DNA of 64,000 nt, taken from the sequence record PZ445551.1; one strand, written 5' to 3'. The position numbers and the translations under genes were made by a program. Origin of the DNA: a phage. Below, in pieces: positions 15,119 to 39,764 of the stretch (the first letter of the stretch is position 1; every line of letters starts with the position of its first letter). The notes under the pieces were generated by a model. The model saw only the letters and a program-made list of their open reading frames with translations, ran no database searches and had not been told where the DNA came from.

Positions 15119-15664
15119 ATGGGGCGTGAGTATGTGATCCAGTCCTGGGTAAAGCATGACGCTAATGATCCGCGCATAATACCAGATGACATGATCGATC
15201 ACATGGTAGGGTATAGCGGGGAGCAGATAGGAAATCGAGCGGCAAAGAGCAACGGCAACACAAAGGCGCGATCCGTTCGCCCTGGTTGGCTGGCAAATGG
15301 TAACGCTGACATTGCAAGCGCCGCAGATCCAAGCGATGACGCTAAAAATAATCCCTTATACAGCATTGATCCGGCTTTTAAGGTGTTAGAAGAGTATCCC
15401 GCTAAATTAGCCGCACTAGATAAGGCATACGAAGAAAAGCGCATGGCATGGACGGTATACAACACCGCTAAAATGGTGCTAGATGCAAAATTGATTAAAG
15501 CCCAGGAGAAGATCAATAAACTTGTTGCAGTAGCGCAAGAGGAAGACCAGGAGGAAGAGGAAGAAATCATGCCTACCCTGGAAGAGGAAGAGATCCAGCC
15601 ATACATGCCGACGGAAGAGGAAAAAAGACAAGCCCTAAAAAATTATGAAAATTGCATTGTGTAA
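15119..15664 (+). CDS. hypothetical protein with highly acidic C-terminus (181 aa)
   Basis: C-terminal QEEDQEEEEEIMPTLEEEEIQPYMPTEEE tract. Confidence 0.55.
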   Translation: MGREYVIQSWVKHDANDPRIIPDDMIDHMVGYSGEQIGNRAAKSNGNTKARSVRPGWLANGNADIASAADPSDDAKNNPLYSIDPAFKVLEEYPAKLAALDKAYEEKRMAWTVYNTAKMVLDAKLIKAQEKINKLVAVAQEEDQEEEEEIMPTLEEEEIQPYMPTEEEKRQALKNYENCIV

Positions 15665-15667
15665 GGC

Positions 15668-15725
15668 TTGACATATGCAAACAAGCCCCGTAATATGTAC
15701 CACATAAAGCGGGGCAACGCCCCAT
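15668..15725 (+). promoter_or_regulatory. promoter + 5' stem-loop cassette
   Basis: TTGACA, 17 nt, TAATAT; hairpin GGGGCAACGCCCC. Confidence 0.55.
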
Positions 15726-15745
15726 AAGGTGAAATAAAAAATCAC

Positions 15746-15773
15746 TTGACACCTGAAATCAGTAAGCTATAAT
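15746..15773 (+). promoter_or_regulatory. second tandem sigma70-like promoter
   Basis: TTGACA, 16 nt, TATAAT directly upstream of small ORF at 15811. Confidence 0.5.
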
Positions 15774-15810
15774 GCTTATATAGATTGAAACATTACTAAG
15801 GAATAAAAGC

Positions 15811-15990
15811 ATGGCTATTATTGCAAAAACTGAGATCGTAGGTTTAGATTCTATCATCCTGGCATATGAGGAAGCTATAGAAATGTATGTAGTGACCTAT
15901 GGTGATTATGTGCGTGAATACGAATACATTGATCTTGCTTTCGAATGTTACATTCGCCAGGTCAATAAAGCCTATGATGATTATCGTTAA
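15811..15990 (+). CDS. small acidic protein (about 59 aa)
   Basis: Not in ORF track; ATG after SD AAGGAATAAAAGC. Confidence 0.4.
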   Translation: MAIIAKTEIVGLDSIILAYEEAIEMYVVTYGDYVREYEYIDLAFECYIRQVNKAYDDYR

Positions 15991-16085
15991 AAGTTTTAGT
16001 CTTGTGCTATTGACAACGAACGATAGTACAAGCATAATAACTTTTATCGGGAATACTCCTAACTAATCAAAAGAGATTAAAGACT

Positions 16086-16451
16086 ATGGCTAAAAATATC
16101 AATGTTTCTGCTTATGCTACCCTGGCTAACACTGCTAAAATTGAACTATCCAGCATTGAAGCGGTACATATTAGCGCCCGTCGCTGGTTTCAAAAGTCTT
16201 ATGGTAATACTTATTTCTCTTTGATGGTTGACGTTGAGATCGGCGGTAAACTGATTGAAGTCGTTAACGTTCCGTTTCACTATGGCTACGGGGATCATTT
16301 TGATACCGTTGCCCTAGAAGAGTTTAGCAAGGTTGTCAACCTGGAAGGTAAAGAGTTTTCAAATTATGCCTACCTTTCCCGTTTTTGCCGTGATAATGGG
16401 ATCGCTGTATACAGTCATGCAAGCGATGTTAAACGTAAAAAAGATTTATAA
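16086..16451 (+). CDS. hypothetical protein (121 aa)
   Basis: ORF with SD AAAGAGATTAAAGACT. Confidence 0.55.
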   Translation: MAKNINVSAYATLANTAKIELSSIEAVHISARRWFQKSYGNTYFSLMVDVEIGGKLIEVVNVPFHYGYGDHFDTVALEEFSKVVNLEGKEFSNYAYLSRFCRDNGIAVYSHASDVKRKKDL

Positions 16452-16457
16452 AAAGCA

Positions 16458-16516
16458 TTGACAGCACGAATAAAAAGCATATAATACTTATATCGAGAGC
16501 GGGAATAGTTCCCGCC
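16458..16516 (+). promoter_or_regulatory. promoter + 5' stem-loop cassette
   Basis: TTGACA, 16 nt, TATAAT; hairpin GCGGGAATAGTTCCCGC. Confidence 0.6.
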
Positions 16517-16540
16517 TCACTGAAAAAAGAGATTAACATC

Positions 16541-16780
16541 ATGGCTAAATCTAAAATGTTCTTAGGTCACAAAAACAAAACTCATTGGAATGTAAGCCTT
16601 TGGATCAACAACGATGAAGGTTTTTATAATCTTGCGCGTGAATTTATCGCAGCTAACACCAATAAGAATGACGCAGCGCGTGATATGATGTTATTTCTTG
16701 AAAGTATGGATCAAGATAAAACGCCAGACGGTTACAAGTTCAGTAAAACTGCGATCCGCGCCGCGATGGTTGGAATGTAA
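16541..16780 (+). CDS. hypothetical protein (79 aa)
   Basis: ORF after promoter/stem-loop cassette. Confidence 0.55.
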   Translation: MAKSKMFLGHKNKTHWNVSLWINNDEGFYNLAREFIAANTNKNDAARDMMLFLESMDQDKTPDGYKFSKTAIRAAMVGM

Positions 16781-16873
16781 AGGAGACATAAAAATGAAAC
16801 ATCGTTCGACCTATCTCACAAAACGTTTTAGCTTAGATCATAAATTGGGCTATTACGGAAGAAATAGAAAATA

Positions 16874-16934
16874 ATTTGACACTGTTTAAAATTCTGGTAT
16901 AGTTTATCACATAGGGCGGGAAATGGTTTCCCGC
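16874..16934 (+). promoter_or_regulatory. promoter + 5' stem-loop cassette
   Basis: TTGACA, 16 nt, TATAGT; hairpin GGCGGGAAATGGTTTCCCGCC. Confidence 0.6.
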
Positions 16935-16957
16935 CAAATGAAAGAAAGGTTATCATT

Positions 16958-17185
16958 ATGGCTATCGTTATTGTTCGCGTATCCGGCACGGTTGGAATCT
17001 CCCAGGTAGTAGCAGTTATCACCGAGAAGAAAGGGGATGATCTTCACTCTTCCTTGAATAGCTGGGCGGTCGCTAACTTCGGGCAATGGTCGAGCGTTGA
17101 GTACATCGAATCCTACCAGGTGCCAACGATTAGCCTAACCGATCTAAATGTTGATCGCTTGTTGTGCCTGGATCAATTAAACTAA
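16958..17185 (+). CDS. hypothetical protein (75 aa)
   Basis: ORF after promoter/stem-loop cassette. Confidence 0.55.
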   Translation: MAIVIVRVSGTVGISQVVAVITEKKGDDLHSSLNSWAVANFGQWSSVEYIESYQVPTISLTDLNVDRLLCLDQLN

Positions 17186-17192
17186 AAATAAT

Positions 17193-17251
17193 ATTGACAA
17201 GATAACTAAAATCAGTAAAATGTAATGCATAGGGCGGCAATAGTGCCGCTC
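17193..17251 (+). promoter_or_regulatory. promoter + 5' stem-loop cassette
   Basis: TTGACA, 16 nt, TAAAAT; hairpin GGGCGGCAATAGTGCCGCTC. Confidence 0.6.
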
Positions 17252-17272
17252 CTAGTGAGAGAGATTATCAAG

Positions 17273-17488
17273 ATGGCTAATATCCGCACACTGTTAAAAA
17301 ATGCAAGTCAAGTTTTATTTTCAGATGACGAGTATTTCAACAAAGACATTACAGGCGTGAAAAATTTAAAAGACGTGAAGGATGTTATCGGTATTCGTGG
17401 ATCTTTACGTAAAGGTGACATATACGGTAACAAGGTGCAATATAAACTGTCAAAAGATTATGATTTTACTTTGACATTTATTTCATAA
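17273..17488 (+). CDS. hypothetical protein (71 aa)
   Basis: Start refined to MANIRTLL downstream of stem-loop. Confidence 0.5.
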   Translation: MANIRTLLKNASQVLFSDDEYFNKDITGVKNLKDVKDVIGIRGSLRKGDIYGNKVQYKLSKDYDFTLTFIS

Positions 17489-17493
17489 AACCG

Positions 17494-17555
17494 CTTGCAA
17501 TACTACAAAAATAAAGTAAACTGTATTCATCAAGGCGGTGGAATAGCCCACCGCC
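17494..17555 (+). promoter_or_regulatory. promoter-like element + 5' stem-loop
   Basis: TTGCAA, 17 nt, TAAACT; hairpin GGCGGTGG..CCACCGCC. Confidence 0.45.
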
Positions 17556-17579
17556 TAACAAAGAGAAGAGGAAAACATC

Positions 17580-17750
17580 ATGATCACTTTTGCTACCCGT
17601 GAAGCCGCTCGCAACGTTGCACGTAAAGTTAACGCCGCCAACCTGGGCGCTACGCTTAAAGCCCCGGTAAAAGATGAATCAGGGAAATGGATCTTCCCTG
17701 GTCTGCGTCACGCTGATAAGCTGGGAACATTAACGTTAAAAAATAAATAA
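17580..17750 (+). CDS. small basic protein (about 56 aa)
   Basis: Not in ORF track; ATG after SD GAGAAGAGGAAAAC. Confidence 0.4.
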   Translation: MITFATREAARNVARKVNAANLGATLKAPVKDESGKWIFPGLRHADKLGTLTLKNK

Positions 17751-17756
17751 TATCCG

Positions 17757-17816
17757 CTTGACAGTAGCATGATTTATAAGTAAAGTAACAACAACGGCGG
17801 GAAATGGTTTCCCGCC
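17757..17816 (+). promoter_or_regulatory. promoter + 5' stem-loop cassette
   Basis: TTGACA with TAAAGT-like -10; hairpin GGCGGGAAATGGTTTCCCGCC. Confidence 0.55.
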
Positions 17817-17836
17817 ATCAATAAAGAGATAAGATT

Positions 17837-18196
17837 ATGAAATCAGTAAAAGCAATTAAAACTTACATTTTGTCGGCTATTTCTTTTGATGGTACTACAA
17901 CCGAAAAAGAAAAAATCACCGAACTGATGCGCCGTTTTAACTCTGAATACTGGTATCCCGATAATCAAAAACGTTACAATTATAACGTGATTAAGGCGAT
18001 AGCCTCATGGTTACAAGGTTTACCGTCAGAAATCAATATTGCTTTTGATTATAACGAGATCGATCACTTGTTAATTGAATGGAAGTACATAAAAGAAACA
18101 AGCAAAGAAACAACCGTTACCCGTGAGCGGGAAAATTATTGGTTATATATTGCAAGCATGATCGTAATCCTGGCAAAACAGCATAACGTGGCGTAA
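17837..18196 (+). CDS. hypothetical protein (119 aa)
   Basis: ORF after promoter/stem-loop cassette. Confidence 0.55.
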   Translation: MKSVKAIKTYILSAISFDGTTTEKEKITELMRRFNSEYWYPDNQKRYNYNVIKAIASWLQGLPSEINIAFDYNEIDHLLIEWKYIKETSKETTVTRERENYWLYIASMIVILAKQHNVA

Positions 18197-18211
18197 TTAA
18201 GAGGAAGAAAC

Positions 18212-18349
18212 ATGAACGCATCACAGCAGATCGAAAAATTCAACCGCAGCAAGGCGCGTAAAGATTGGAACGAAGAGATCACCAAAAAAGGCGACAAGCG
18301 GAACAAAACAAAGAGAGATCGCAGCACAAAAAGATACTGGAACGAATAA
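18212..18349 (+). CDS. small Lys/Arg-rich protein (about 45 aa)
   Basis: Not in ORF track; SD AAGAGGAAGAAAC; followed by terminator. Confidence 0.4.
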   Translation: MNASQQIEKFNRSKARKDWNEEITKKGDKRNKTKRDRSTKRYWNE

Positions 18350-18353
18350 CAAA

Positions 18354-18378
18354 AAGGGCGCAATAAGCGCCCTTTTAG
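18354..18378 (+). terminator. rho-independent terminator
   Basis: Hairpin GGGCGCAATAAGCGCCC followed by TTTTAGC. Confidence 0.6.
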
Positions 18379-18466
18379 CTTATATAGAGGCTTGTTACCC
18401 ATAGGCAATGGTAACGCCAGGATAAGCCTATAAACCACGTTAGACAGCTTTACAGGAGCTTTAAAA

Positions 18467-18649
18467 ATGAAATTAGACGAAATAAGCAAGGCACTAGCCC
18501 AGGGGCAAAGGTTATGCGCCCGATATCGTGATCAATATGGCTTCATAACTAGCGGCGTGATCCTGGGGATTGAAGGCAATAAGATTTTTATTGACACGTT
18601 GAAAAACGTTGTATATAGTGACAATATAATCTCAATAAAACATATATGA
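18467..18649 (+). CDS. hypothetical protein (60 aa)
   Basis: ORF with upstream SD ACAGGAGC. Confidence 0.5.
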   Translation: MKLDEISKALAQGQRLCARYRDQYGFITSGVILGIEGNKIFIDTLKNVVYSDNIISIKHI

Positions 18650-18657
18650 GGCAAGAA

Positions 18658-19059
18658 ATGAAAAAATTATTGATCGCTGGTTTAATCTCTTTTGGCATGG
18701 TTGGAACATCTAGCGCGGCGATATCCTCCACAGTAGCAGAATTAAGCGCCGTTGATGCAATGGAAAACGTCATGCTTATTAATAACGCGATCCCCGATGA
18801 AATCATGGAGGATTCACACATGATCGCTTATGGTGCTGTTACACAACTAACGGCAAAAATAGATAAATCTATTGTTAACGGCTTAAATGAAGATGTGCCA
18901 TGTGAAATTATTACCAGTGTGCTGACTACTCAAAATTTTACGCCGTGGTTAAAAAGTATTCAAAAAGTACACAGTACAGCCGCAGATCGTAGCAATGAAA
19001 AACTAGTGTCAGCACTTGCAACGTATACCCTAGCAAAATGCACCGAGATAAAAGATTGA
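18658..19059 (+). CDS. putative secreted protein (signal peptide MKKLLIAGLISFGMVGTSSAA)
   Basis: Start refined to MKKLL with SD GAGG; N-terminal signal-like hydrophobic segment ending in SSA-A. Confidence 0.55.
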   Translation: MKKLLIAGLISFGMVGTSSAAISSTVAELSAVDAMENVMLINNAIPDEIMEDSHMIAYGAVTQLTAKIDKSIVNGLNEDVPCEIITSVLTTQNFTPWLKSIQKVHSTAADRSNEKLVSALATYTLAKCTEIKD

Positions 19060-19106
19060 CAACATAGAAAGCACGTTATAAGATACACACAACAAAGGAG
19101 AACTAC

Positions 19107-19409
19107 ATGAACGGCATAGCTAAAACGTTTTTTCTTTTTTCTGGTGTAAATGATCCATCAATAAAAGTCGATAGTGTAAAAGAAAACAATACTATCACCG
19201 CTAAATTGTTTCAAGATGAAACAAATAACGTGCTAATCATTAATCTTAAAGAAGTAACTAAAGGTTATTATACTATTGCTTACCATGCGATTTATCATGC
19301 TGGTACTAGTGAGGAAGTGCAAACAAGCAACAACGAAAGCGCGGCGCTACCTGGTGATCTGGTGCTGGGCGTTATCAGTTTAATTGTCAATGATTTTTTT
19401 AAGGAGTAA
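19107..19409 (+). CDS. hypothetical protein (100 aa)
   Basis: ORF after TTGACA/TATAAG promoter-like element and SD AAAGGAGAA. Confidence 0.55.
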   Translation: MNGIAKTFFLFSGVNDPSIKVDSVKENNTITAKLFQDETNNVLIINLKEVTKGYYTIAYHAIYHAGTSEEVQTSNNESAALPGDLVLGVISLIVNDFFKE

Positions 19410-19413
19410 AACC

Positions 19414-19509
19414 ATGCCCTATTTACATTTATTTTTCGGTATCTTATTGACAGGATCTTTTTTCTTCTGTATGCTTGTTTCTATTGTAAACCACGTTTTA
19501 AGACATTAA
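19414..19509 (+). CDS. small hydrophobic peptide (about 31 aa)
   Basis: Not in ORF track; SD AAGGAG upstream; weak. Confidence 0.3.
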   Translation: MPYLHLFFGILLTGSFFFCMLVSIVNHVLRH

Positions 19510-19518
19510 GGAAACAGC

Positions 19519-19638
19519 ATGAAAATTATTCCCGTACAATATAGCGTAATAAATCCAGCATACGAGGAAGGAAGGAAAACAAGCATGGCTTTATGTTGTA
19601 TTGCTACTATAGCCATGTTGTTATATATTGTGTTTTAA
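19519..19638 (+). CDS. small hydrophobic peptide (about 39 aa)
   Basis: Not in ORF track; SD AAGGAAACAGC; weak. Confidence 0.3.
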   Translation: MKIIPVQYSVINPAYEEGRKTSMALCCIATIAMLLYIVF

Positions 19639-19738
19639 TAGGTTTTATAGTTGTACGCTTTAAGGGCTTGACAATTTTTTGTTATGCTTTAAACTATATC
19701 TTGAAAACGGCAAAGGCCGCAAACAAAAGGGTAAAATT

Positions 19739-20062
19739 ATGAAATCTGTGATCGGTGTTTATTTGGATAACTCTGATTTTTTCTATCATCGCGCTCGTTT
19801 CCTTGATGCGATTGAAATGATAGAATCAGGCTTTAAAGAGTATCGCCTTGCACATGATGACCTGGAAGCATTACAGGGCAATAGTGTTTTTACATTGCAA
19901 GCTAAAGCACTATGCAAAAGCCGGATCGACATTGCGAGCAAAAAGATAGAACGCGGCATGTCCTGGTTGCGCACCGCAGAAATCAACATGGGGCAATGGT
20001 ACGGCGAAAACTTAGAAAATAAACATACTTTTGTCAATGTAGAAAATATTGAAGATTATTGA
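19739..20062 (+). CDS. hypothetical protein (107 aa)
   Basis: Start refined to MKSVIGVY downstream of TTGACA promoter-like element. Confidence 0.5.
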   Translation: MKSVIGVYLDNSDFFYHRARFLDAIEMIESGFKEYRLAHDDLEALQGNSVFTLQAKALCKSRIDIASKKIERGMSWLRTAEINMGQWYGENLENKHTFVNVENIEDY

Positions 20063-20124
20063 TTGACAGCACACCTAACGGGTAGTATATTGTATCTCAT
20101 AGAGCGGGGAAATGGTTTCCCCGC
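20063..20124 (+). promoter_or_regulatory. promoter + 5' stem-loop cassette
   Basis: TTGACA with TAGTAT-like -10; hairpin GCGGGGAAATGGTTTCCCCGC. Confidence 0.55.
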
Positions 20125-20144
20125 CTTAAAAGAAGAGATAAGCT

Positions 20145-20429
20145 ATGAAGATCACAAAAGCACTTTCCAACTATGCAGCACGTCGCGGATTATGTTTAAC
20201 CGTTGAAAATTTAGGGAAAGAAGATTTTTTGTGCTTTTGGGAGCTTGAGAATGATAATGAGTGGATCTTCTCTTATTCTATCTGCGAAGATCAAAACGGT
20301 TGTTTATTAACCTGGCGCGGTAATATCTATTTACCGGAAGAAATCAAAGAAGAATTACCAGGCACGATCATGACTGAGAAACAGCTTAAGGAAGTGATCA
20401 ATTTTGTAGGGCAAAACATTAAAAAATAA
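20145..20429 (+). CDS. hypothetical protein (94 aa)
   Basis: ORF after promoter/stem-loop cassette. Confidence 0.55.
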   Translation: MKITKALSNYAARRGLCLTVENLGKEDFLCFWELENDNEWIFSYSICEDQNGCLLTWRGNIYLPEEIKEELPGTIMTEKQLKEVINFVGQNIKK

Positions 20430-20430
20430 T

Positions 20431-20488
20431 TTGACACTAGGCAAACAACGTAGTAAAGTTTATCACATAGGGCGGCAATAGTGCCGCT
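20431..20488 (+). promoter_or_regulatory. promoter + 5' stem-loop cassette
   Basis: TTGACA with TAAAGT-like -10; hairpin GGGCGGCAATAGTGCCGCTC. Confidence 0.55.
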
Positions 20489-20510
20489 CATAACAGAAGA
20501 GAAACAAATC

Positions 20511-20681
20511 ATGATCCCGACTATGTTTTATGTATCGCGCAAAGGTCACAATATTTTTTGGTCTGAAGATTTAAATGAAGCTATGACGTTTGCCCGTGAT
20601 CGTGTCGCTATCGGTGGCGTTAACATCACTGTAACCGATGAAAACGGCATTGAATACTATAACGGCGACGATGAAGAGTAA
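20511..20681 (+). CDS. hypothetical protein (56 aa)
   Basis: Start refined to MIPTMFYV downstream of stem-loop. Confidence 0.5.
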   Translation: MIPTMFYVSRKGHNIFWSEDLNEAMTFARDRVAIGGVNITVTDENGIEYYNGDDEE

Positions 20682-20725
20682 TCAACAAGGCGGGATTAAT
20701 CCCGCCTGTATTAAAGGGTAATATA

Positions 20726-20863
20726 ATGAAAACTTTCAACGCAACAGCCTCGACAATTGGTTATATTATTACAGTGCAAGCCGTTGACCTGGTAGCGGCA
20801 GCAAACAAGATTAAAAAGATGATCCCAACAGGCAGCGAATTTTCCGTTTGGGAAGTAAAATAA
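20726..20863 (+). CDS. small protein (about 45 aa)
   Basis: Not in ORF track; preceded by palindrome GGCGGGATTAATCCCGCC and SD-like AAGGGTAA. Confidence 0.4.
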   Translation: MKTFNATASTIGYIITVQAVDLVAAANKIKKMIPTGSEFSVWEVK

Positions 20864-20865
20864 AT

Positions 20866-20924
20866 CTTGACAATAGTTTATTACTTGATAGAATGTATTT
20901 CGTAGGGCGGCAATAGTGCCGCTC
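20866..20924 (+). promoter_or_regulatory. promoter + 5' stem-loop cassette
   Basis: TTGACA, 16 nt, TAGAAT; hairpin GGGCGGCAATAGTGCCGCTC. Confidence 0.6.
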
Positions 20925-20945
20925 ACAACTAAAAGAGAAATCATC

Positions 20946-21140
20946 ATGGCGCTTAAAAAATTAACAAGCAATACTCGTTGGGATGAAATCGACGGGGAAG
21001 TATACATTTTCGCCCGTAAACCAGGTGATCAAAAATGGTCAAAGGCTTTTACTTGCCACCCTGCAACAATAGATCTAATAAAAAGTAAAGGTTTACGTGA
21101 AGCAGTAGCGAGAAGTTTACTGATCCCTTATAAAAAATAG
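20946..21140 (+). CDS. hypothetical protein (64 aa)
   Basis: Start refined to MALKKLTS downstream of stem-loop. Confidence 0.5.
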   Translation: MALKKLTSNTRWDEIDGEVYIFARKPGDQKWSKAFTCHPATIDLIKSKGLREAVARSLLIPYKK

Positions 21141-21141
21141 T

Positions 21142-21203
21142 TTGACAATATGCTGTTATCTGGTAAAGTGTACGACATAGGGCGGGGCAATAAGGCAACG
21201 CCC
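21142..21203 (+). promoter_or_regulatory. promoter + variant 5' stem-loop
   Basis: TTGACA with TAAAGT-like -10; GC-rich imperfect hairpin GGGCGGGGCAATAAGGCAACGCCC. Confidence 0.45.
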
Positions 21204-21221
21204 ATTAATGAGGGTAGAATC

Positions 21222-21326
21222 ATGTTAGAGAAAATTTTCACGGTTGTAGTAGTTGGCCTGGCGTTATCGGTTGGATTGGTTGCAACTATGGCTAACATGA
21301 TCCTATCTTCCCACGGTATTGGATAA
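21222..21326 (+). CDS. small hydrophobic peptide (about 34 aa)
   Basis: Not in ORF track; single predicted TM helix. Confidence 0.35.
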   Translation: MLEKIFTVVVVGLALSVGLVATMANMILSSHGIG

Positions 21327-21336
21327 GGTGAATCAA

Positions 21337-21552
21337 ATGATCACGAATAAGACAGGTAAAACAGAATTTTTACGCGGCTTGCAAATAGGTAAACCTGAGA
21401 TCTGGCATTGCACTAAATCCGCGCATAATGAAATGAAAGATTTTACCGCTACTTTACAACGTGTTAAAATATCTATCACGCAGAAAAAAGCCTTGTTAGT
21501 AGTAGAAAACGAGATACCGCAAACCATTATTATTGTCGAGCGTACAGCATGA
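21337..21552 (+). CDS. hypothetical protein (71 aa)
   Basis: Start refined to MITNKTGK. Confidence 0.5.
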   Translation: MITNKTGKTEFLRGLQIGKPEIWHCTKSAHNEMKDFTATLQRVKISITQKKALLVVENEIPQTIIIVERTA

Positions 21553-21935
21553 AAACTGAAATCATTATTGAAATCATCAACGGTTATAAAGAAGCCTTTA
21601 TTTTTGCTGAATCAGCCAGGGATCATGAAGGCTATTTTATTGATAACTTAGACGATTATGATTTTTCAGATCAAGCCCATCAGCGGATCATTCATGACGT
21701 AGCGGCTTATTGTGATGCCAATGATGCTGCTATCTCTGAGGCAATGAGCGACGGCGCTACAGCAAACCAGATCGGGAATGATTTACATTTTACCCGTAAC
21801 GGTCACGGCGTAGGCTTTTGGGATCGCCCTGAAATATACACTACTAACACCGCCAACCGCCTAACAAATGCAGCTAAATTAATGCCATCGGTGCATGCTT
21901 ACATTGGTGAAGATAATTTGATTTATATTGAATAA
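21549..21935 (+). CDS. hypothetical protein (128 aa)
   Basis: ATGA overlap with upstream gene. Confidence 0.55.
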   Translation: MKTEIIIEIINGYKEAFIFAESARDHEGYFIDNLDDYDFSDQAHQRIIHDVAAYCDANDAAISEAMSDGATANQIGNDLHFTRNGHGVGFWDRPEIYTTNTANRLTNAAKLMPSVHAYIGEDNLIYIE

Positions 21936-21941
21936 AAAGTA

Positions 21942-22000
21942 TTGACACCGATCCCCCATATGGTATTATTTACCACGTAGGCGGGAAATGGTTTCCCGCC
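21942..22000 (+). promoter_or_regulatory. promoter + 5' stem-loop cassette
   Basis: TTGACA with TATTAT-like -10; hairpin GGCGGGAAATGGTTTCCCGCC. Confidence 0.55.
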
Positions 22001-22023
22001 AGGTAATCAAAAAGGTAAATACT

Positions 22024-22413
22024 ATGCGCAACCTGGTTTCTGTTTCTAACGTTGAAAAATTTCAATCCTTGCAGGGTATCGTTAACAACGTAGCGCCTTT
22101 TTTAGTCAATGGCTTGATTGCAAAGATGAAAAATAAACATCATGCGGCATGGTCTGCTTACTGCTTTGATAATGATGAAAAAGCGGCTGAAATGATGTTA
22201 GATATGCTGTTAAATAGTGTAGAAACATCTTTACCGGAAAACATCGCAGAAGAGATCACCTATCGTTATAATATGGCGATCACTTACCAGGAGGTTGCGC
22301 AATTTAATATGATGGATGATGACGAACAACAGGATCAGGAAATGTTTTGGGAGTATGCAGATCGTCAATCGGCTTTTGATGAAAAGTTAGCGATGTATTA
22401 TAACGAATATTAA
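22024..22413 (+). CDS. hypothetical protein (129 aa)
   Basis: Start refined to MRNLVSVS downstream of stem-loop. Confidence 0.55.
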   Translation: MRNLVSVSNVEKFQSLQGIVNNVAPFLVNGLIAKMKNKHHAAWSAYCFDNDEKAAEMMLDMLLNSVETSLPENIAEEITYRYNMAITYQEVAQFNMMDDDEQQDQEMFWEYADRQSAFDEKLAMYYNEY

Positions 22414-22426
22414 TACACGGTAAAAG

Positions 22427-22455
22427 AAAGGGGCGCACTAAGCGCCCTTTTTTGT
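22427..22455 (+). terminator. rho-independent terminator
   Basis: Hairpin AGGGGCGCACTAAGCGCCCT followed by TTTTTTG. Confidence 0.65.
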
Positions 22456-22799
22456 ATTCTTTTTTCACGATGGAAGTAACACGTAAAGAATAAACGTAAA
22501 AGGTGGTGTAAAACAGCCTAAAACCGATTATAACCGCTTAAACAAGGTAGTAATGACTAATCACCTTGCCAGGATGAAAAAGCTGTTATAAAGCTATTTA
22601 GAGCGTTTAAAGCACATAGGAAATAATTTGCTTTTTATCTTGCCTTTTATCCTGCTTTTGATTATTATTATGGAACGGGCGGCACCTGGGGACAGGGGAA
22701 GGTAATCACCGGAAGATCCCGCTATATATTGATAGCTAATATCTATTAAACAACAAAACATCAAAGGAATAAACTATCAAATCTTTACAATTCTACCTA

Positions 22800-22859
22800 T
22801 TGACACAGGATCACCCTTATAATAAGATGTATCCAGTAGGGCGGGAAATGGTTTCCCGC
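22800..22859 (+). promoter_or_regulatory. promoter + 5' stem-loop cassette
   Basis: TTGACA, 17 nt, TAAGAT; hairpin GGGCGGGAAATGGTTTCCCGC. Confidence 0.6.
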
Positions 22860-22878
22860 TTGATATAGGAATCATACC

Positions 22879-23112: not shown

Positions 23113-23113
23113 C

Positions 23114-23142
23114 TTGCTTTATAGTCTCTGTTAATTTATAGT
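23114..23142 (+). promoter_or_regulatory. sigma70-like promoter without stem-loop
   Basis: TTGCTT, 17 nt, TATAGT. Confidence 0.45.
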
Positions 23143-23187
23143 TATCGTGTAGGGCAAACAATTTTAAACGGTAAACGAGGAATCACC

Positions 23188-23571: not shown

Positions 23572-23585
23572 ATAACATTTCATAC

Positions 23586-31471: not shown

Positions 31472-31472
31472 T

Positions 31473-31817: not shown

Positions 31818-31833
31818 AAATAAGGAGGAAACT

Positions 31834-32292
31834 ATGCAAGAGGTTAAACATTATCCACATGGTCGTAGTTTTGTAGCTGTATGGCATGTTCCTGCTCGTA
31901 ATGAACTATTTTGCGCATCTTTTCATTACAAAGATGGACAATATTTCACCTATGACGAGACGATGGATGATTTCATCCCAGAGTGCGATCATGGGTATAC
32001 ACCAATGTTCTTTAAACGTATGAAAGCTCGTTTCTTCGTTACAGATGTTGATGGTGAACCTACTTGGCACATCGAAGAAGATTGGCAAGATTCTGTGGAT
32101 ATTAAAGAAGCCCCAGAATGGGCTACATTACTGGTACACGTCAAAACCCCTACTCTTGACGTTATGGCGTGGGTTAATCATGATGATACCCATTACCAAT
32201 ACATAAATGGTAGCACAGAGATTTCTGGTGAGATTATTGGTCGTTGGAAGCCTACGAATCAGGTTGCTATTGTCGGGTATAAGACAGTATAA
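31834..32292 (+). CDS. hypothetical protein (152 aa)
   Basis: Start refined with SD AAGGAGGAA. Confidence 0.55.
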   Translation: MQEVKHYPHGRSFVAVWHVPARNELFCASFHYKDGQYFTYDETMDDFIPECDHGYTPMFFKRMKARFFVTDVDGEPTWHIEEDWQDSVDIKEAPEWATLLVHVKTPTLDVMAWVNHDDTHYQYINGSTEISGEIIGRWKPTNQVAIVGYKTV

Positions 32293-32293
32293 T

Positions 32294-32488
32294 ATGAAAA
32301 ATAGTGTAGATTGGGATGATTTATCCGATTTTGAAAAATGGTTCTTAGGTAGTGGTTGTTATGCAGATGGGGATCTCGAAAGAGATCCTTCTGGAAACTA
32401 CACTATGCCATTAACCCAAGGTTTTTATGAGTGCTGGTGCGCAGCACAAAACAACGTACTGAATAAGGAGACAACACAATGCAATTAA
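32294..32488 (+). CDS. hypothetical protein (64 aa)
   Basis: Start refined to MKNSVDWD. Confidence 0.45.
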   Translation: MKNSVDWDDLSDFEKWFLGSGCYADGDLERDPSGNYTMPLTQGFYECWCAAQNNVLNKETTQCN

Positions 32489-32718
32489 ACATCGGACAAC
32501 CAATTTTTGATGCAGATACTGGTCAATATGCAGTGATTGTTGCTCGTATGAGCGGTGATGACCTTATTGTTTCAGAACTACTCGGATCAGATCCGCAACT
32601 GCGCGTAGTATGTGACCTATATCTTCGAGACGAAAGTGATCGCATTGCACTGAAAGAAGATGGTATGCTCTACTATACCTGGACTAGAGATCCTGGGGTA
32701 ACGGAGGTAGAGGTATAA
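32479..32718 (+). CDS. hypothetical protein (79 aa)
   Basis: SD AAGGAGACAACAC upstream. Confidence 0.55.
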   Translation: MQLNIGQPIFDADTGQYAVIVARMSGDDLIVSELLGSDPQLRVVCDLYLRDESDRIALKEDGMLYYTWTRDPGVTEVEV

Positions 32719-33017
32719 TGGTAAGGAATAGGGGTTTACATAAAAGAAGACACCTTACTTACTGGCATCGTAAAGTACATGAACCTGTATCAAAGAAAGA
32801 ATGGCAATATCTGCCTTATGGGAAGGAGCGAAGAAAGTACCTGTTAGCTCACTTAAGGGTACATGGTTCTCTTCCTGTTAACAGTAAGTGGCAATTGCAA
32901 ACAGCTTATGACGAAGATATGAAATATCTGTTAAAGAGAGGCATTATTTGCCTTGTTAAGATAGGACGATGGAAATCTCGTCAATCTTATATCGTACTTA
33001 AACAGGAGAAACGATGA
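32718..33017 (+). CDS. hypothetical basic protein (99 aa)
   Basis: Lys/Arg-rich; SD GGAGGTAGAGG. Confidence 0.5.
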   Translation: MVRNRGLHKRRHLTYWHRKVHEPVSKKEWQYLPYGKERRKYLLAHLRVHGSLPVNSKWQLQTAYDEDMKYLLKRGIICLVKIGRWKSRQSYIVLKQEKR

Positions 33018-33265
33018 ATATCAAAGATGTTGTAGCATACGTAGAAGATGAAGTTAAAAACCATACAAGTTTACTGAAAGTAATGGTTGTGGTTAAAGAT
33101 GGTATTGGACAAGTAAACGTACAACATGTCTTATCTGACACTGTATATAATGTGTTTGAATGTAAAGAAACACCTCATGGAGTACGTGTGGTTTATATTG
33201 ATAACAATTTCAAAGAATGTGTGAGACATACCTTAGAAAATGAACTAAGGATCACAATCTTATGA
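33014..33265 (+). CDS. hypothetical protein (83 aa)
   Basis: ATGA overlap. Confidence 0.55.
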   Translation: MNIKDVVAYVEDEVKNHTSLLKVMVVVKDGIGQVNVQHVLSDTVYNVFECKETPHGVRVVYIDNNFKECVRHTLENELRITIL

Positions 33266-33435
33266 GTTATTATGTTGTACCTTATGCCAATAAGTGGAGA
33301 GTAAGAGAAACTTGTTTTCTATTCTCTTGGTGGGCTACGTTCGGAGATGGTTGTGGAAATGATACAGGAAAGCCTGTAGAGTACGACACAAAAGAAGAAT
33401 GTGAACAGTGGATAAAATTAACACAAAGATGTTGA
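33262..33435 (+). CDS. small Cys-containing protein (about 57 aa)
   Basis: Not in ORF track; ATGA overlap with upstream gene. Confidence 0.35.
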   Translation: MSYYVVPYANKWRVRETCFLFSWWATFGDGCGNDTGKPVEYDTKEECEQWIKLTQRC

Positions 33436-33488
33436 CACGATCTTAACTTCTTGTTAGTATCAATGTGTACTAACGATAAGGAGGGTTT

Positions 33489-33713
33489 ATGAAGTCTGTA
33501 AACAAGTTGCAACAATTTTTGTTATCAACAGCAATCTTTTTGCTTTTGTTAATTGGTATTCTGTATGGTGCATCTAACTTATACAATCTACATAATGATG
33601 TAGAACAGAATAAAGAGAAGTGCATCATTCTAAAACACAAGAAACAAGCAGAAGATTTCTTAAAGAATAAGTGTTACAACTACATTGATTATGAGGAGAC
33701 AAACAATGATTAA
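33489..33713 (+). CDS. small membrane-anchored protein, family B copy 2
   Basis: TM helix plus KEKCIILKHKKQAEDFLKNKC motif; SD AAGGAGGG. Confidence 0.55.
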   Translation: MKSVNKLQQFLLSTAIFLLLLIGILYGASNLYNLHNDVEQNKEKCIILKHKKQAEDFLKNKCYNYIDYEETNND

Positions 33714-33948
33714 AGAATTAGGTATGCGAGTATACAGTGAGTGGACTCCAAGCAATGGCCCAGGAGTTGTTGCAGCTAAATGTATCAATGGTCGTATTGA
33801 GTACCTGGAAGGGTATGAAGATAATGAAGAGTTAGTAGATTATGCTAAATCTTTTATTGAAGATGATACAGACTTTATTGTATTATATGATACAGGAGAG
33901 TTAGAGTATGGGTATGATGGAGATGGGGATATCTTTGAACTTCAATAA
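33706..33948 (+). CDS. hypothetical acidic protein (80 aa)
   Basis: Start refined to MIKELGMR with SD GGAGAC. Confidence 0.5.
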   Translation: MIKELGMRVYSEWTPSNGPGVVAAKCINGRIEYLEGYEDNEELVDYAKSFIEDDTDFIVLYDTGELEYGYDGDGDIFELQ

Positions 33949-34039
33949 GAGTAGTAAGTAAGGTATAAAGAGTATATAGTTAGTTATAGAGTTAGTAACA
34001 TTACATATACTCTTTCCATGTATAACATGGAATATTCTC

Positions 34040-34115
34040 TACCTCGCTATCGCTCGGTATATAAGATTAGGGTAGCATGTTTTTTACGAAAAGTAAAACT
34101 GTTTATACCGATTGA
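34040..34115. repeat. conserved noncoding element, copy 2
   Basis: CTCGCTATCGCTCGG...TTAGGGTAGCATGTTTTTTACGAAAAGTAAAA; 18-nt core identical to copy at 5601-5690. Confidence 0.55.
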
Positions 34116-34155
34116 TAGCAGGTTTTTAATAGATTCTATCTATGAGGAGTAGAAA

Positions 34156-34374
34156 GTGTACAAATTATATAAAGGAAAAGATAAGTTTACGGGTAATACA
34201 TCTGGTTTCTATGTAACACCACGTGGCGTTGCCGTATTTGATTGGATTCCTGGTACTCCAGATCGTGAAATGATCTCTCTTGTAAAACTGTCGGAACAAG
34301 AGTACACTTACGGTGACATTACAACATTCTATTCTCGTGCAGAAAATCCAAAACTGATTGCGGAGTGGGAATAA
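34156..34374 (+). CDS. hypothetical protein (72 aa), probable GTG start
   Basis: SD GAGGAG upstream of GTG. Confidence 0.5.
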   Translation: MYKLYKGKDKFTGNTSGFYVTPRGVAVFDWIPGTPDREMISLVKLSEQEYTYGDITTFYSRAENPKLIAEWE

Positions 34375-34637
34375 TGGTTACACGATATGATTTAGAGGTG
34401 TACAGCCAAGGTGCTGCTGGTCAATGTGATATTGTACCAGATCCAGAAGGAGACTATGTTCTTCTTGCTGATTACAACAAGCTAGAAGAAAGACTTCTGG
34501 CTGTGTATGCTAAAGAGAACAAAACAATCTGTCCTTATTGCAATGGAATGGGTTGGGTGGTTGCAGATGTTGGACAAATGTATGAGTGTGTACCTTGTAA
34601 AACCACAGGCTTTATTGAAAAGGATACTGACAAATGA
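34374..34637 (+). CDS. zinc-ribbon protein (CxxC..CxxC)
   Basis: ICPYCNGMGW ... CVPCKTTGF; TAATG coupling. Confidence 0.5.
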   Translation: MVTRYDLEVYSQGAAGQCDIVPDPEGDYVLLADYNKLEERLLAVYAKENKTICPYCNGMGWVVADVGQMYECVPCKTTGFIEKDTDK

Positions 34638-34882
34638 CTGTAGCAGATAAAATGAGAGAACTGGCAGAAAACGCAGAACTTAACAAAGCAAAGGAGAGTT
34701 TACAAAACATCTACGCGTATATTGAAAGAGCAGCTAAAGATGGAGACAGAGAAGCCGCTATATACACGCTTTATCCAACTTTTGTAAAAGTTAGTTTGGA
34801 TGCTGAAGGTTTTTCAACTTTTATTGATACAGAAACATCTCATTACGATGAAAACTTTACTCGAATAGTTATTCGATGGTAA
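34634..34882 (+). CDS. hypothetical protein (82 aa)
   Basis: ATGA overlap. Confidence 0.55.
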   Translation: MTVADKMRELAENAELNKAKESLQNIYAYIERAAKDGDREAAIYTLYPTFVKVSLDAEGFSTFIDTETSHYDENFTRIVIRW

Positions 34883-34987
34883 ATTTCTGATATTTATGCG
34901 CCCTGGTTACCTGGGCGTAATAAATTCAGCTTATATTTGATCCGCGCCTTCGGCGCTTAGGCAAAGCCACGCCACACAGGAGAGTTT

Positions 34988-35398
34988 ATGTTCAAATGGT
35001 TAAAAGAGTTTCTAACATCTTTGGTAGAACCTAAGCAAGACGTTATTAAAAGCTCTATCACAGGAAAACCGCTTGTTATAGTTACAGGCGGCTTTGGTCA
35101 TGGGTTTTCTCTTAAACAAACAGATATAGGTTTACAGGGATCTTTGATTAGTTTTAGAATCACTCAATTAGGAGATAATAGACAAACAATCTTAGACCTT
35201 TTCAATGGGGAATTTGATGACTATTTATCCAAGAGTGGTAAAGAACGTCTGATCGAGCATATAAAACACCGCTATGAGCATGGTGGTTACTACTTAGATA
35301 CAAAACGTAATGCACAAGGTGATCTTGACATAGTTCGTATAGCGTGGGATAATGAATTTAAAACTAAACTTGGTAAACTTCTGGAGGAGTTATGGTAA
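34988..35398 (+). CDS. hypothetical protein (136 aa)
   Basis: SD CAGGAGAG upstream. Confidence 0.55.
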   Translation: MFKWLKEFLTSLVEPKQDVIKSSITGKPLVIVTGGFGHGFSLKQTDIGLQGSLISFRITQLGDNRQTILDLFNGEFDDYLSKSGKERLIEHIKHRYEHGGYYLDTKRNAQGDLDIVRIAWDNEFKTKLGKLLEELW

Positions 35399-37634: not shown

Positions 37635-37639
37635 CACAT

Positions 37640-37665
37640 AAACCCGCTTCGGCGGGTTTTCTTGT
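37640..37665 (+). terminator. rho-independent terminator
   Basis: Hairpin CCCGCTTCGGCGGG followed by TTTTCTTG. Confidence 0.65.
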
Positions 37666-37708
37666 ATGTGTGTTTTTATTTGTCTTAGCATAAACAATAG
37701 GAGGTATT

Positions 37709-37930
37709 ATGTCTGTAGTTGTAGAAGGTAGTATTGGCTTCTTAGTAGATAACCCTCACCCTTTCGTGGTTAAGGTTCATATTCAAGAAAAGGTAAGCAA
37801 CAATACGTGGTTGTGCTTGTTAGATAGTAAGATACACTCTTACACAGAGGTTTATCTTCATACTTGGCAAATTGGTACGATAACAGCAGAGGATGAATTG
37901 ATAATTGAATTATATGAACGAGATCTATAG
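37709..37930 (+). CDS. hypothetical protein (73 aa)
   Basis: SD TAGGAGGT upstream; last gene of rightward block. Confidence 0.55.
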   Translation: MSVVVEGSIGFLVDNPHPFVVKVHIQEKVSNNTWLCLLDSKIHSYTEVYLHTWQIGTITAEDELIIELYERDL

Positions 37931-38009
37931 ATGACTTTACTAGAGAGTATCGTAGTGTTAATCATCTTTATCATTGTTGTCATAGGATATTTTACAGAAG
38001 ACTAAAATA

Positions 38010-38040
38010 AAGCCCCCTAGAAGCGATTCTAGGGGCTTTT
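38010..38040. terminator. bidirectional terminator at convergent block junction
   Basis: Hairpin CCCCTAGAA-GCGA-TTCTAGGGG flanked by A-run upstream and T-run downstream. Confidence 0.65.
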
Positions 38041-38106
38041 GTTTGCATTAGATAGGGAAACGTATTACTAAAATAAAAAGTGCGTTAGAATGCGTTACAG
38101 GAGGTT

Positions 38107-38364
38107 TTAGGAATGCATAAAATCTTCTTCAGGGCAGGTTGAGAGATAAGAGATGCACGTTGGGACAACAACAACATTATCTTTAAGGTTTGCAACCAAG
38201 CCTTTTGTAATTCCAGCCACTGCCCCGTTAATATCTGCTTGACGGATACCAAAACCTTGTTGTGCGGATAGATAACAAAATCCCTCACCTTTCTGTTGAT
38301 TATTATTGAAGTAATAAACGTAGTGCATCATAAAATGGTCTTTAACGATTTGTTCTGTGGTCAT
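38107..38364 (-). CDS. hypothetical protein (85 aa)
   Basis: ORF preceded on minus strand by hairpin + T-run + SD GGAGAA. Confidence 0.5.
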   Translation of the reverse strand: MTTEQIVKDHFMMHYVYYFNNNQQKGEGFCYLSAQQGFGIRQADINGAVAGITKGLVANLKDNVVVVPTCISYLSTCPEEDFMHS

Positions 38365-38382
38365 AATATTCTCCTATAAGAA

Positions 38383-38402
38383 AAAAGGGGCTTTCGCCCC
38401 TT
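38383..38402 (-). terminator. hairpin + U-tract module directly upstream of SD
   Basis: GGGGCGAAAGCCCC then TTTTTTCTTAT on minus strand. Confidence 0.5.
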
Positions 38403-38409
38403 GGTCAAG

Positions 38410-39222
38410 TTACTTAGTCAAATGATCTTCTATCATTTTTATGAAAGCAGGATTGCTAAAAGCATCTGCTGCCTTTTCTCTATAAACAAAGACTCCTCTA
38501 TCTTCGTAAAGAAGAGTTTCTTCGTAATTAATTCCTGGGTTAACAACAATCATTTTTATACCCATAGTAAGTGCAGGGAATAATTCCCAATTAAAATTGA
38601 TAACTTGGTTTGAACATCCTACTACAACAACCAAATCTTGCATGGTCAAAGTATCAAACAAGTGAGCCATATCTGCATACAAAGGTGCAGCCTCACCAAA
38701 AAATACAACATTAGGCTTCACCCAGTTATAATCATCTATGTTTATACTATTGTAACCAATGTCTACCAGTGTTTTGTAATCTCCAGGGTGCATACGGTAA
38801 ACTACTTCAGGAAGATACCCGTGCACGTGAATAACAGAATCCCTGTCCACACCTGCTCGCTCTAGTAGATCATCAACGTTTGTTGTCAAGTTTACTACTT
38901 GGTTAGGATATTCCTTAAACCACTTTGCTATTTGAATATGTGCAGCATTAGGTTGTACATCTTTAAGCTCAACACGTCTTTTGTTATAAAATTCGTGTGT
39001 TTTGGCATACAAGTCCATACCGTTCTCGTCTACACCACCGACCACTGGAAGATCTGGAGATGTTCTCACACGATAACCTGCTTGGAAAGCTCCAATATCG
39101 CAGACCTCTTCTAAATCATATTCTTCCCACAAGGCACGACCACTATCTGTGTCTGTTCGGAATGTTCGAATCCCACTGTCTGCACTTAAACCTGCGCCAC
39201 TAACAAAAATTACTCTTCGCAT
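38410..39222 (-). CDS. Sir2-family NAD-dependent deacylase or ADP-ribosyltransferase-like protein
   Basis: GAGLSADSGIRTFR, TTNVDDLLERAG, HVHG, VVFFGE, LVVVVGCS; no CxxC zinc-binding pairs. Confidence 0.8.
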   Translation of the reverse strand: MRRVIFVSGAGLSADSGIRTFRTDTDSGRALWEEYDLEEVCDIGAFQAGYRVRTSPDLPVVGGVDENGMDLYAKTHEFYNKRRVELKDVQPNAAHIQIAKWFKEYPNQVVNLTTNVDDLLERAGVDRDSVIHVHGYLPEVVYRMHPGDYKTLVDIGYNSINIDDYNWVKPNVVFFGEAAPLYADMAHLFDTLTMQDLVVVVGCSNQVINFNWELFPALTMGIKMIVVNPGINYEETLLYEDRGVFVYREKAADAFSNPAFIKMIEDHLTK

Positions 39223-39764
39223 TCAATATCCTCTTCGTAATCATCATCCCAAGAAGATGCGTCGTAACGCTCTTCCTCTTCGAAATCCCAATTAATTTCT
39301 ACTCCAAAATCTAAAAACAATTTAACAATGTTTTCTGTAGAGTAGTATTTATCATAAGCGTCAGCTAGTTCCCAATACTTGTCACTCAATTTTTTATATT
39401 TAGGATCATTATAGTCATAATCTACTTTATAACCATAATCATACATCTCTTGTTCAGCTTTAAGCATAGCTTCTGGTGTAAGAAGATTAGGGAACGGACG
39501 ATTTCTTTCTTTTAACTTAGAAACAATCCAGTTTGCAACATTTGCCACTTCACCATCTTGATTATCACCTAAACAACTTGCATAATCTCCATCTTCGTAA
39601 GTGCCTAAATCCCCACAGACCACATGTACAATACTTGAATACGATCCACACGTTTCACAATCTGAAAAAGTGTCTACTGTTGTAATATCAATAGATAAAA
39701 CTGGTAAAGCCATAGCTTCTTTCACACAAGCCTCCTCATATAATAACATATCATCAAAACCCAT
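39210..39764 (-). CDS. highly acidic Cys/Tyr-rich hypothetical protein
   Basis: Start refined to MGFDDML with SD GGAGGA; C-terminus WDFEEEERYDASSWDDDYEEDIECEE. Confidence 0.5.
   Translation of the reverse strand: MGFDDMLLYEEACVKEAMALPVLSIDITTVDTFSDCETCGSYSSIVHVVCGDLGTYEDGDYASCLGDNQDGEVANVANWIVSKLKERNRPFPNLLTPEAMLKAEQEMYDYGYKVDYDYNDPKYKKLSDKYWELADAYDKYYSTENIVKLFLDFGVEINWDFEEEERYDASSWDDDYEEDIECEE

Follow-up and report, generated by a model that had tools for sequence, protein, structure and literature searches.

A hyper-acidic protein encoded upstream of a Sir2 gene in phi92-like phages is a candidate electrostatic decoy

We analysed a 64,000-nucleotide stretch of phage DNA (sequence record PZ445551.1; the window), which is 100% identical, in reverse orientation, to Escherichia phage VivaForever (PP925843.1), a phi92-like Justusliebigvirus of the subfamily Stephanstirmvirinae. 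Two open reading frames (ORFs) of the window, here called ORF1 and ORF2, had been singled out in an initial annotation as strongly acidic proteins with charge patterns typical of DNA-mimic anti-restriction proteins of early regions. Both lie where it had placed them and contain the peptide strings it had quoted; it had given no strand, which is the forward one for ORF1 and the reverse one for ORF2. The ATG of ORF2 at 39764 is also the start used in the deposited annotation. The two ORFs are 24 kb apart on opposite strands, and both are labelled hypothetical protein in PP925843.1. They encode unrelated proteins, as blastp gave no match between them at E ≤ 10.

The ORF2 protein contains 46 acidic and 14 basic residues (25% Asp + Glu; 8.7% Tyr), giving a net charge of −32 and an isoelectric point (pI) of 3.92. 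This is the most negative net charge among the 121 ORFs of the window, and per residue ORF2 ranks second. ORF1 as a whole has a net charge of −13 and a pI of 4.66 (rank 25–29 of 121); its residues 1–135 have a net charge of 0 and a pI of 6.94, the entire net charge residing in the C-terminal 46 residues. The description as strongly acidic thus fits ORF2, which is extreme throughout, but not ORF1. Each protein has a tract with 12 acidic residues in 21, the next best among the window ORFs having 9. When the sequences were shuffled, the observed clustering of acidic residues was reached in 50 of 20 000 shuffles of ORF1 and in 814 of 20 000 shuffles of ORF2.

AlphaFold2 models ORF2 with a mean predicted local distance difference test (pLDDT) of 84.8 and a predicted template modelling score of 0.73. 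Confidence starts to drop at about residue 161 and is below 50 only at residues 174–184. From the N terminus, the model consists of a helix (3–18), a β-hairpin (23–36 and 40–51) with C36-x-x-C39 at its turn, and a short strand, followed by four helices within residues 73–151, a strand (155–163) and a low-confidence acidic tail. ORF2 is therefore predicted to be folded, not disordered; the linker that the initial annotation had named as an alternative fits the poly-Glu tract of ORF1, which is modelled with low confidence.

Across 20 members of its family, phrog_9509, the only invariant columns are C36, C39, G59 and C64. The cysteines form a putative zinc knuckle at the turn of the predicted β-hairpin, and their motif gave weak local, sub-threshold matches to the zinc-ribbon families L32 and TerY_C. 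Zinc-ribbon and zinc-knuckle proteins have four metal ligands, typically in two CxxC knuckles. Candidate ligands in ORF2 are the three invariant cysteines, and the 20 aligned members share no invariant fourth. The protein ends in an acidic and aromatic tail, in which on average 55% of the residues are acidic across the family and position W172 is aromatic in 94% of members. The tail motif EEERYDASSWDDD of ORF2 has the counterpart EDERYDAYRWEDE in jumbo-phage homologues. In several Justusliebigvirus genomes a GAA-to-TAA change stops ORF2 at DDDY, with loss of the last eight residues and of the overlap with the downstream Sir2 gene. Since these natural variants do without them, the extreme C-terminus of ORF2 seems dispensable.

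The family, which belongs to large lytic myoviruses, is small and patchy: 137 phage records contain it, and it accounts for about 19 clusters among 1.8 billion representatives. Its members come from Stephanstirmvirinae, Eneladusvirus-like jumbo phages (Erwinia, Serratia), a relative of RaK2 and a few phages from metagenomes. Full-length members keep a net charge of −16 to −35 at 23–54% identity, and particular acidic and aromatic columns are conserved in the alignment. Together with the common tail motif, this suggests that acidity itself is under selection. The sequence diverges much faster than the neighbouring genes: between the window and Phapecoctavirus, ORF2 is 38% identical, compared with 96% for the adjoining Sir2 and 68% for the upstream gene. 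When jumbo phages are compared with one another, identity is about 34% over 74 residues for the ORF2-like proteins, 84% for the flanking DUF5856 and 70% for the flanking thymidine kinase.

Searches of Pfam, NCBIfam and PADLOC, and a sequence search of the PDB, returned no match for ORF2. In Pfam, neither ORF2 nor ORF1 had a match at E ≤ 1, and none was found at E ≤ 0.1 for 20 members of the ORF2 family and 25 of the ORF1 family. Orthologues in the EmilieFrey, PaulScherrer and BME3 records carry the label 'aminoacyl-tRNA synthetase'. This label is unsupported, the best match being a sub-threshold one to PheRS_B1 in one of 20 members.

We scored as near-consensus σ70 promoters all matches to TTGACA-N16–18-TATAAT at 11 of 12 positions or better. 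The ORF2 promoter matches at all 12 and is one of only two such sites on the reverse strand between 38 and 64 kb. It lies inside the last codons of the upstream gene, overlapping its stop codon, 55 nt upstream of ORF2; four divergent relatives retain it with 11/12 matches. A terminator-like hairpin follows at no more than about 10 nt from the predicted transcription start site and might serve as a leader attenuator or 5′ stabiliser, or mark the end of a tiny transcript. The order of promoter, hairpin, ribosome-binding site (RBS) and start codon is conserved across genera (loci L004, L005, L010 and L012 of those that we fetched), with a strong T-run in Phapecoctavirus.

At the other end of ORF2, the ATG of the Sir2 gene (39222) is embedded in codons E181–C182 (GAA TGC), so that the genes overlap by 13 nt. 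This overlapping Shine–Dalgarno sequence (SD) and ATG are found in every Stephanstirmvirinae locus examined. Read from these signals, ORF2 and Sir2 are a two-gene unit of promoter, ORF2, Sir2 and terminator. In Klebsiella phage FKP3 an HNH endonuclease gene (L004, 3546–4196) is inserted exactly at the ORF2/Sir2 junction and uses the start codon and RBS that normally serve Sir2. The overlap also disposes of Cys182 as a fourth zinc ligand. This residue only looks invariant, since the ATG of Sir2 takes its TG from the Cys182 codon; members from outside Stephanstirmvirinae do not have the residue, and the natural truncations lose it. The upstream gene (39819-40427, reverse strand; phrog_8514) encodes a Trp-rich protein of 202 amino acids that has a net charge of −17 and carries a CxxC at its C-terminus; no family matched it, and it accompanies ORF2 throughout Stephanstirmvirinae.

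In Stephanstirmvirinae, ORF2 stands at the end of a replication and nucleotide-metabolism block, in the order Dcm methyltransferase, hypothetical gene, ORF2, Sir2. In the window, the Dcm-like methyltransferase gene is two genes upstream and another methyltransferase gene is nearby. Jumbo phages have a DUF5856/Dps-like gene, the ORF2-like gene, further genes and then thymidine kinase. An unrelated 28-kb contig (L024) encodes a single-stranded DNA-binding protein (SSB), a UvsX-like and a UvsY-like protein, the ORF2-like protein, a DNA polymerase exonuclease subunit and a helicase, with a 41-nt overlap between the ORF2 homologue and the exonuclease gene. The family thus sits within DNA replication, recombination or nucleotide-metabolism modules in three independent lineages.

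Table 1. Coordinates of ORF2, ORF1 and associated features (window positions unless a locus is named).
Feature	Position	Strand	Basis
ORF2, 184-aa hyper-acidic protein, phrog_9509	39210..39764	−	ORF, translation, charge, AlphaFold2, alignments, PHROG match
Invariant motif C36-x-x-C39-G40 ... G59 ... A62-x-C64, residues 36–64	39573..39659	−	alignment of 20 members
Acidic/aromatic C-terminal tail EEERYDASSWDDDYEEDIECEE, residues 164–184	39213..39275	−	family conservation
ORF2 truncated variants	L008 and L009, 5001-5531; EmilieFrey (L001), 5244-5774		EmilieFrey from the annotated 176-aa length
Consensus σ70 promoter (TTGACA, 18 nt, TGgTATAAT)	39818..39847	−	12/12 match, extended −10
GC-rich terminator-like hairpin, weak T-run, between promoter and RBS	39782..39802	−	sequence; kept in relatives
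SD GGAGG, 4 nt upstream of ORF2 ATG	39769..39773	−	direct reading
Phage Sir2-family gene, 270 aa	38410..39222	−	Pfam SIR2, 1.3e-22
Strong intrinsic terminator directly 3′ of the Sir2 stop, closing the ORF2–Sir2 unit	38385..38402	−	sequence
ORF1, 181-aa protein, phrog_16605	15119..15664	+	ORF, PHROG, homologues
ORF1 residues 1–65, most conserved, MGREYVIQSWVKHD...GYSGEQxGNR..., Gly/Asn-rich, near neutral	15119..15313	+	invariant columns
ORF1 residues 85–147, helical hairpin	15371..15559	+	pLDDT 90–96 for blocks 81–140
ORF1 poly-Glu tract QEEDQEEEEEIMPTLEEEEIQ, residues 139–159, acidic/Pro-rich linker	15533..15595	+	variable, low pLDDT
Small acidic ORF, 60 aa, pI 3.66	54541-54723	−	computed pI
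Small acidic ORF, 108 aa, pI 4.06	54082-54408	−	computed pI
Small acidic ORF, 85 aa, pI 4.08	42037-42294	−	computed pI
Small acidic ORF, 85 aa, pI 4.01, inside the promoter-dense putative early block	33691-33948	+	computed pI

The reading that we favour, with a probability of roughly one in three, is that ORF2 is an electrostatic decoy with a recombination- or replication-linked target and that ORF1 is an ordinary protein; for ORF2 this makes a credible but unproven candidate. ORF2 would be a compact folded protein that combines a helical body with a three-cysteine knuckle, probably zinc-binding, and an acidic and aromatic tail. As a nucleic-acid mimic, it would occupy the DNA-binding surface of a DNA-processing protein, which may be a DNA-end, recombination or replication-linked enzyme such as a RecBCD-type host nuclease. 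The gene context makes a replication or recombination target likelier than a type I restriction enzyme. An Ocr-like charge, the predicted fold, family-wide acidity, fast evolution, the promoter and the DNA-metabolism contexts all support a decoy. The DNA-mimic pattern that had been claimed for both proteins therefore holds for the composition, predicted folding and family-wide acidity of ORF2, although no sequence or fold link to a known mimic was found; for ORF1, whose charge lies in a variable linker, it does not hold. It is rather doubtful that ORF2 is, beyond this, the first of a structurally novel class of nucleic-acid mimics in phages, hyper-acidic, anchored by a zinc knuckle and ending in an acidic and aromatic tail. 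Its target would then be an enzyme of the host that acts on DNA ends or binds DNA, being either a nuclease of the RecBCD type or part of a defence system so far without a mimic. On this reading, phi92-like phages would deploy ORF2 and a sirtuin from one early promoter, suggesting a two-pronged counter-defence cassette.

Several observations weigh against a decoy. The proteome of the window is generally acidic, with a median pI of 5.3 and a pI below 5 in 44% of the ORFs. The terminator-like hairpin separates the promoter from the gene, so that early high expression is not assured. To our knowledge, a conserved three-cysteine motif is not typical of known DNA mimics. Given the translational coupling to Sir2, and to the exonuclease gene in L024, ORF2 could instead work with phage enzymes. 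Finally, we found no experimental data in the literature for any member of phrog_9509.

The same contexts might point to an accessory factor of phage replication or recombination, whose tail would dock on basic surfaces of SSB, recombinase or polymerase subunits of the phage, in the manner of the acidic C-terminal tails of T4 gp32, T7 gp2.5 and bacterial SSB. DNA metabolism is common to all three contexts, the L024 homologue sits between the UvsY-like and exonuclease genes downstream of the SSB and UvsX-like genes, with the 41-nt overlap, and conservation extends to the tail motif with its W172. Slow evolution is usual for core accessory factors of replication, however, and ORF2 diverges far faster than the flanking replication and metabolism genes. 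The family is also patchy, being seemingly absent from close relatives with similar replication genes, and the last eight residues of the tail are dispensable in natural variants. We regard such a role as unlikely.

To a similar degree we consider it improbable that the acidity has nothing to do with mimicry, ORF2 being a small metal-binding, redox or structural protein and both ORFs the extremes of a skewed distribution. The 44% of window ORFs with a pI below 5, among them several other small ORFs with a pI near 4, would fit this, as would the metal site suggested by the three invariant cysteines and the ferritin/Dps-like DUF5856 protein encoded upstream in jumbo phages. Yet a net charge of −16 to −35 has been maintained through extensive sequence turnover, the tail motif is specific rather than of low complexity, and the net charge of ORF2 stands out clearly even from this acidic proteome.

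The two-gene unit raises the question of a dedicated partner of Sir2, that is, a regulator, an inhibitor, a chaperone or a substrate of ADP-ribosylation. In its favour, the SD and start codon of Sir2 are built from the last Glu and Cys codons of ORF2 at all Stephanstirmvirinae loci examined. The phage Sir2 lacks the CxxC pairs of the usual sirtuin zinc site and contains just two cysteines, whereas ORF2 has a Cys knuckle. But 982 phage records contain a Sir2 homologue (among them T5-like phages, Vequintavirinae, Vibrio and jumbo phages), compared with 137 for ORF2. The genes that precede Sir2 in T5-like phages, in Vequintavirinae and elsewhere are unrelated to ORF2 and not consistently acidic. 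No Sir2 gene was found within the 3–6 kb flanks examined around the jumbo-phage and L024 homologues; the former are bracketed by hairpins or terminators, and the latter is coupled to a different gene. The HNH endonuclease gene of FKP3 separates the two genes. We therefore reject Sir2 as an obligate partner; in general it is probably not the functional partner of ORF2, and a dedicated partnership is quite unlikely. In phage GAP32, the Sir2 gene is near a nicotinamide phosphoribosyltransferase gene and directly upstream of a NUDIX gene.

Very unlikely, in our estimate, is the role that had been proposed initially, namely an Ocr/ArdA-type mimic blocking type I restriction–modification or BREX early in infection. 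The Ocr-like charge density, the consensus host-type promoter and the methyltransferase genes near ORF2 would agree with it, but no Ocr or ArdA match was found by hidden Markov model (HMM) or fold, and the family is found in replication and recombination modules, not in a leading, first-entering region. Published plating data (BASEL S1 data, PMC8594841) allow a comparison of phages Bas57–62, of which Bas60–62 carry the gene and the Vequintavirus phages Bas57–59 apparently do not, as judged from hit counts and listed matches rather than genome by genome. The phi92-like carriers plate with an efficiency of plating (EOP) of 0.1–0.7 on EcoKI and about 1 on EcoCFT_I (PMC8594841), despite 12 and 7 apparent recognition sites. 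For EmilieFrey, whose ORF2 orthologue is 97% identical to ORF2, the EOP is 0.10–0.36 on EcoKI, about 1 on EcoCFT_I and 0.11–0.42 on EcoCFT_II (PMC8594841). Bas57–59 are as weakly restricted by type I systems, with an EOP of 0.06–0.83 on EcoKI and 0.22–1.0 on EcoCFT_I (PMC8594841). Since they behave alike, weak type I restriction is not specific to ORF2 carriers, and the data are neutral with respect to evasion by ORF2. EcoRI, EcoRV and EcoPI eliminate EmilieFrey and the other phi92-like carriers (EOP below detection; PMC8594841), so that the published plating lends the anti-restriction role no support. On the type III system EcoCFT_II, phi92-like phages have an EOP of 0.06–0.56 despite about 212–221 apparent sites, and Bas57–59 are below detection (PMC8594841); this tolerance could be due to a phage methyltransferase or an anti-restriction factor.

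ORF1 belongs to phrog_16605, a family confined to Stephanstirmvirinae (134 phage records) with 64% identity in Phapecoctavirus, 49% in Klebsiella phage 05F01 and net charges of −3 to −18. In an alignment of 25 homologues, the invariant residues fall in the N-terminal 65 residues and the helical region. The AlphaFold2 model has a pLDDT of 68, with values below 50 at residues 1–12 and 28–54. ORF1 does not end in its poly-Glu tract, as had been stated, since 22 residues follow. The tract is poorly conserved, varies in sequence and length with indels, and has a pLDDT of about 55; in the model it is a low-confidence acidic linker between the helical hairpin and a short conserved C-terminal helix. 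None of the Pfam, PDB or BFVD matches was informative. Because the conserved part is neutral and the charge lies in a variable, low-confidence linker, ORF1 is unlikely to be a DNA mimic and is better seen as an ordinary protein. That the tract itself is a mimic surface is most improbable, even though its 12 acidic residues in 21 are clustered beyond chance and the gene adjoins a putative early region.

This region is suggested by the distribution of near-consensus promoters, of which the whole window has 16, compared with 3.7 expected from shuffles. Eleven of the 16 are on the forward strand at 15746-35353, among small hypothetical genes, and this block may be an early region driven by host RNA polymerase. 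The early position that had been ascribed to both ORFs rests on such signals. It is plausible for ORF1, at the upstream edge of the block, while ORF2, with a 12/12 promoter of its own, is part of the replication and nucleotide-metabolism block. A literature search for transcriptome or proteome data, the PHROG identifiers and phi92 gp039 returned nothing relevant. A promoter–hairpin–promoter arrangement comparable with the leader of ORF2 is found 3′ of ORF1 (15668-15773). Four other small ORFs of the window, several with a pI near 4, equal ORF2 in acidity per residue or exceed it (Table 1). Their size and position make them no worse candidates for DNA mimics than ORF1.

We also considered links of ORF2 to known counter-defence genes. 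A Phapecoctavirus-like contig (ERZ27275858; L029) encodes, at 1427-1696 and about 3.3 kb upstream of the ORF2 homologue, an 89-aa protein with a Pfam match to the Acb2/Tad1 hairpin, a known anti-CBASS and anti-Thoeris sponge fold. This gene is present in L029 only, with no homologue in the window or the other loci fetched, and a counter-defence island was rejected. Atd1, the anti-TIR gene reported for Justusliebigvirus, is MazG-like and unrelated to ORF2. A link to NAD or ADP-ribose through adjacency of NADAR genes was rejected as shared synteny: only the BF-type phages and a single metagenomic lineage related to them (L006, L007, L025 and L026) have a NADAR gene near the ORF2 homologue, and L013–L016, L027 and L028 do not. 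The product of a window gene annotated as hypothetical (11827-12378, forward strand) has a NADAR domain and is 38% identical to the NADAR protein of Serratia phage BF. The first 25 nt of the gene exactly match the published cloning primer for NADAR-Bas60 (PMC11257639), which has been shown to counter the DarTG1 defence system (PMC11257639). The gene probably encodes a known anti-DarT factor, unannotated in the present record.

With their broad host range, phi92-like and phAPEC8-like phages are candidates for use in therapy, and a function has been assigned to only a minority of their genes. Should ORF2 be a decoy inhibitor of a host DNA enzyme, the few known DNA mimics would gain a structurally new family, and it would be easier to explain how these phages protect or replicate their DNA. 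The analysis also corrects the synthetase label on ORF2 orthologues and takes ORF1 off the list of candidates, so that effort can be directed at one gene.

Among known mimics, T7 Ocr (gp0.3) inhibits type I restriction and BREX and, as an elongated helical dimer, imitates bent B-form DNA. Computed in the same way, Ocr has a net charge of −28 and a pI of 3.87 in 117 residues, compared with −32 and 3.92 in 184 residues for ORF2. Per residue this amounts to −0.239 for Ocr, −0.174 for ORF2 and −0.072 for ORF1, so that ORF2, but not ORF1, shares the very high negative charge density of the Ocr family. Ocr and ORF2 also have in common an acidic C-terminal tail and a gene downstream of a strong host-type promoter. 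The two sequences are not similar (best blastp E of 4.2), and we found no sequence or fold link from ORF2 to Ocr, ArdA or any solved structure, and no Ocr-like fold. ArdA, an anti-restriction mimic encoded by plasmids and transposons, is of similar size and strongly negative net charge, and both proteins are folded, ORF2 by prediction. A search for sequence, HMM or fold similarity to ArdA found none.

The acidic C-terminal tails of SSB proteins (T4 gp32, T7 gp2.5 and E. coli SSB) resemble ORF2 in being conserved, rich in Asp and Glu with key aromatic residues, and set in a replication or recombination context. ORF2 differs in being acidic throughout, in having no predicted OB fold and in its last eight residues being dispensable in natural variants. 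Being acidic throughout and without a predicted OB fold, it would not itself be expected to bind DNA.

Lambda Gam and T7 gp5.9 are small acidic DNA-mimic inhibitors of RecBCD encoded in recombination and replication clusters. We found no relation of ORF2 to them in sequence or fold; ORF2 is larger than gp5.9 and has the Cys knuckle. The lambda gam gene is part of the exo-bet-gam operon, and T7 5.9 adjoins the gene 6 exonuclease, so that a DNA-metabolism context is typical of RecBCD mimic inhibitors. The ORF2 family shares this location in a recombination or replication cluster, both in L024 and at the end of the block in the window. The L024 order of SSB, UvsX-like and UvsY-like genes, ORF2 homologue and exonuclease resembles the exo-bet-gam arrangement.

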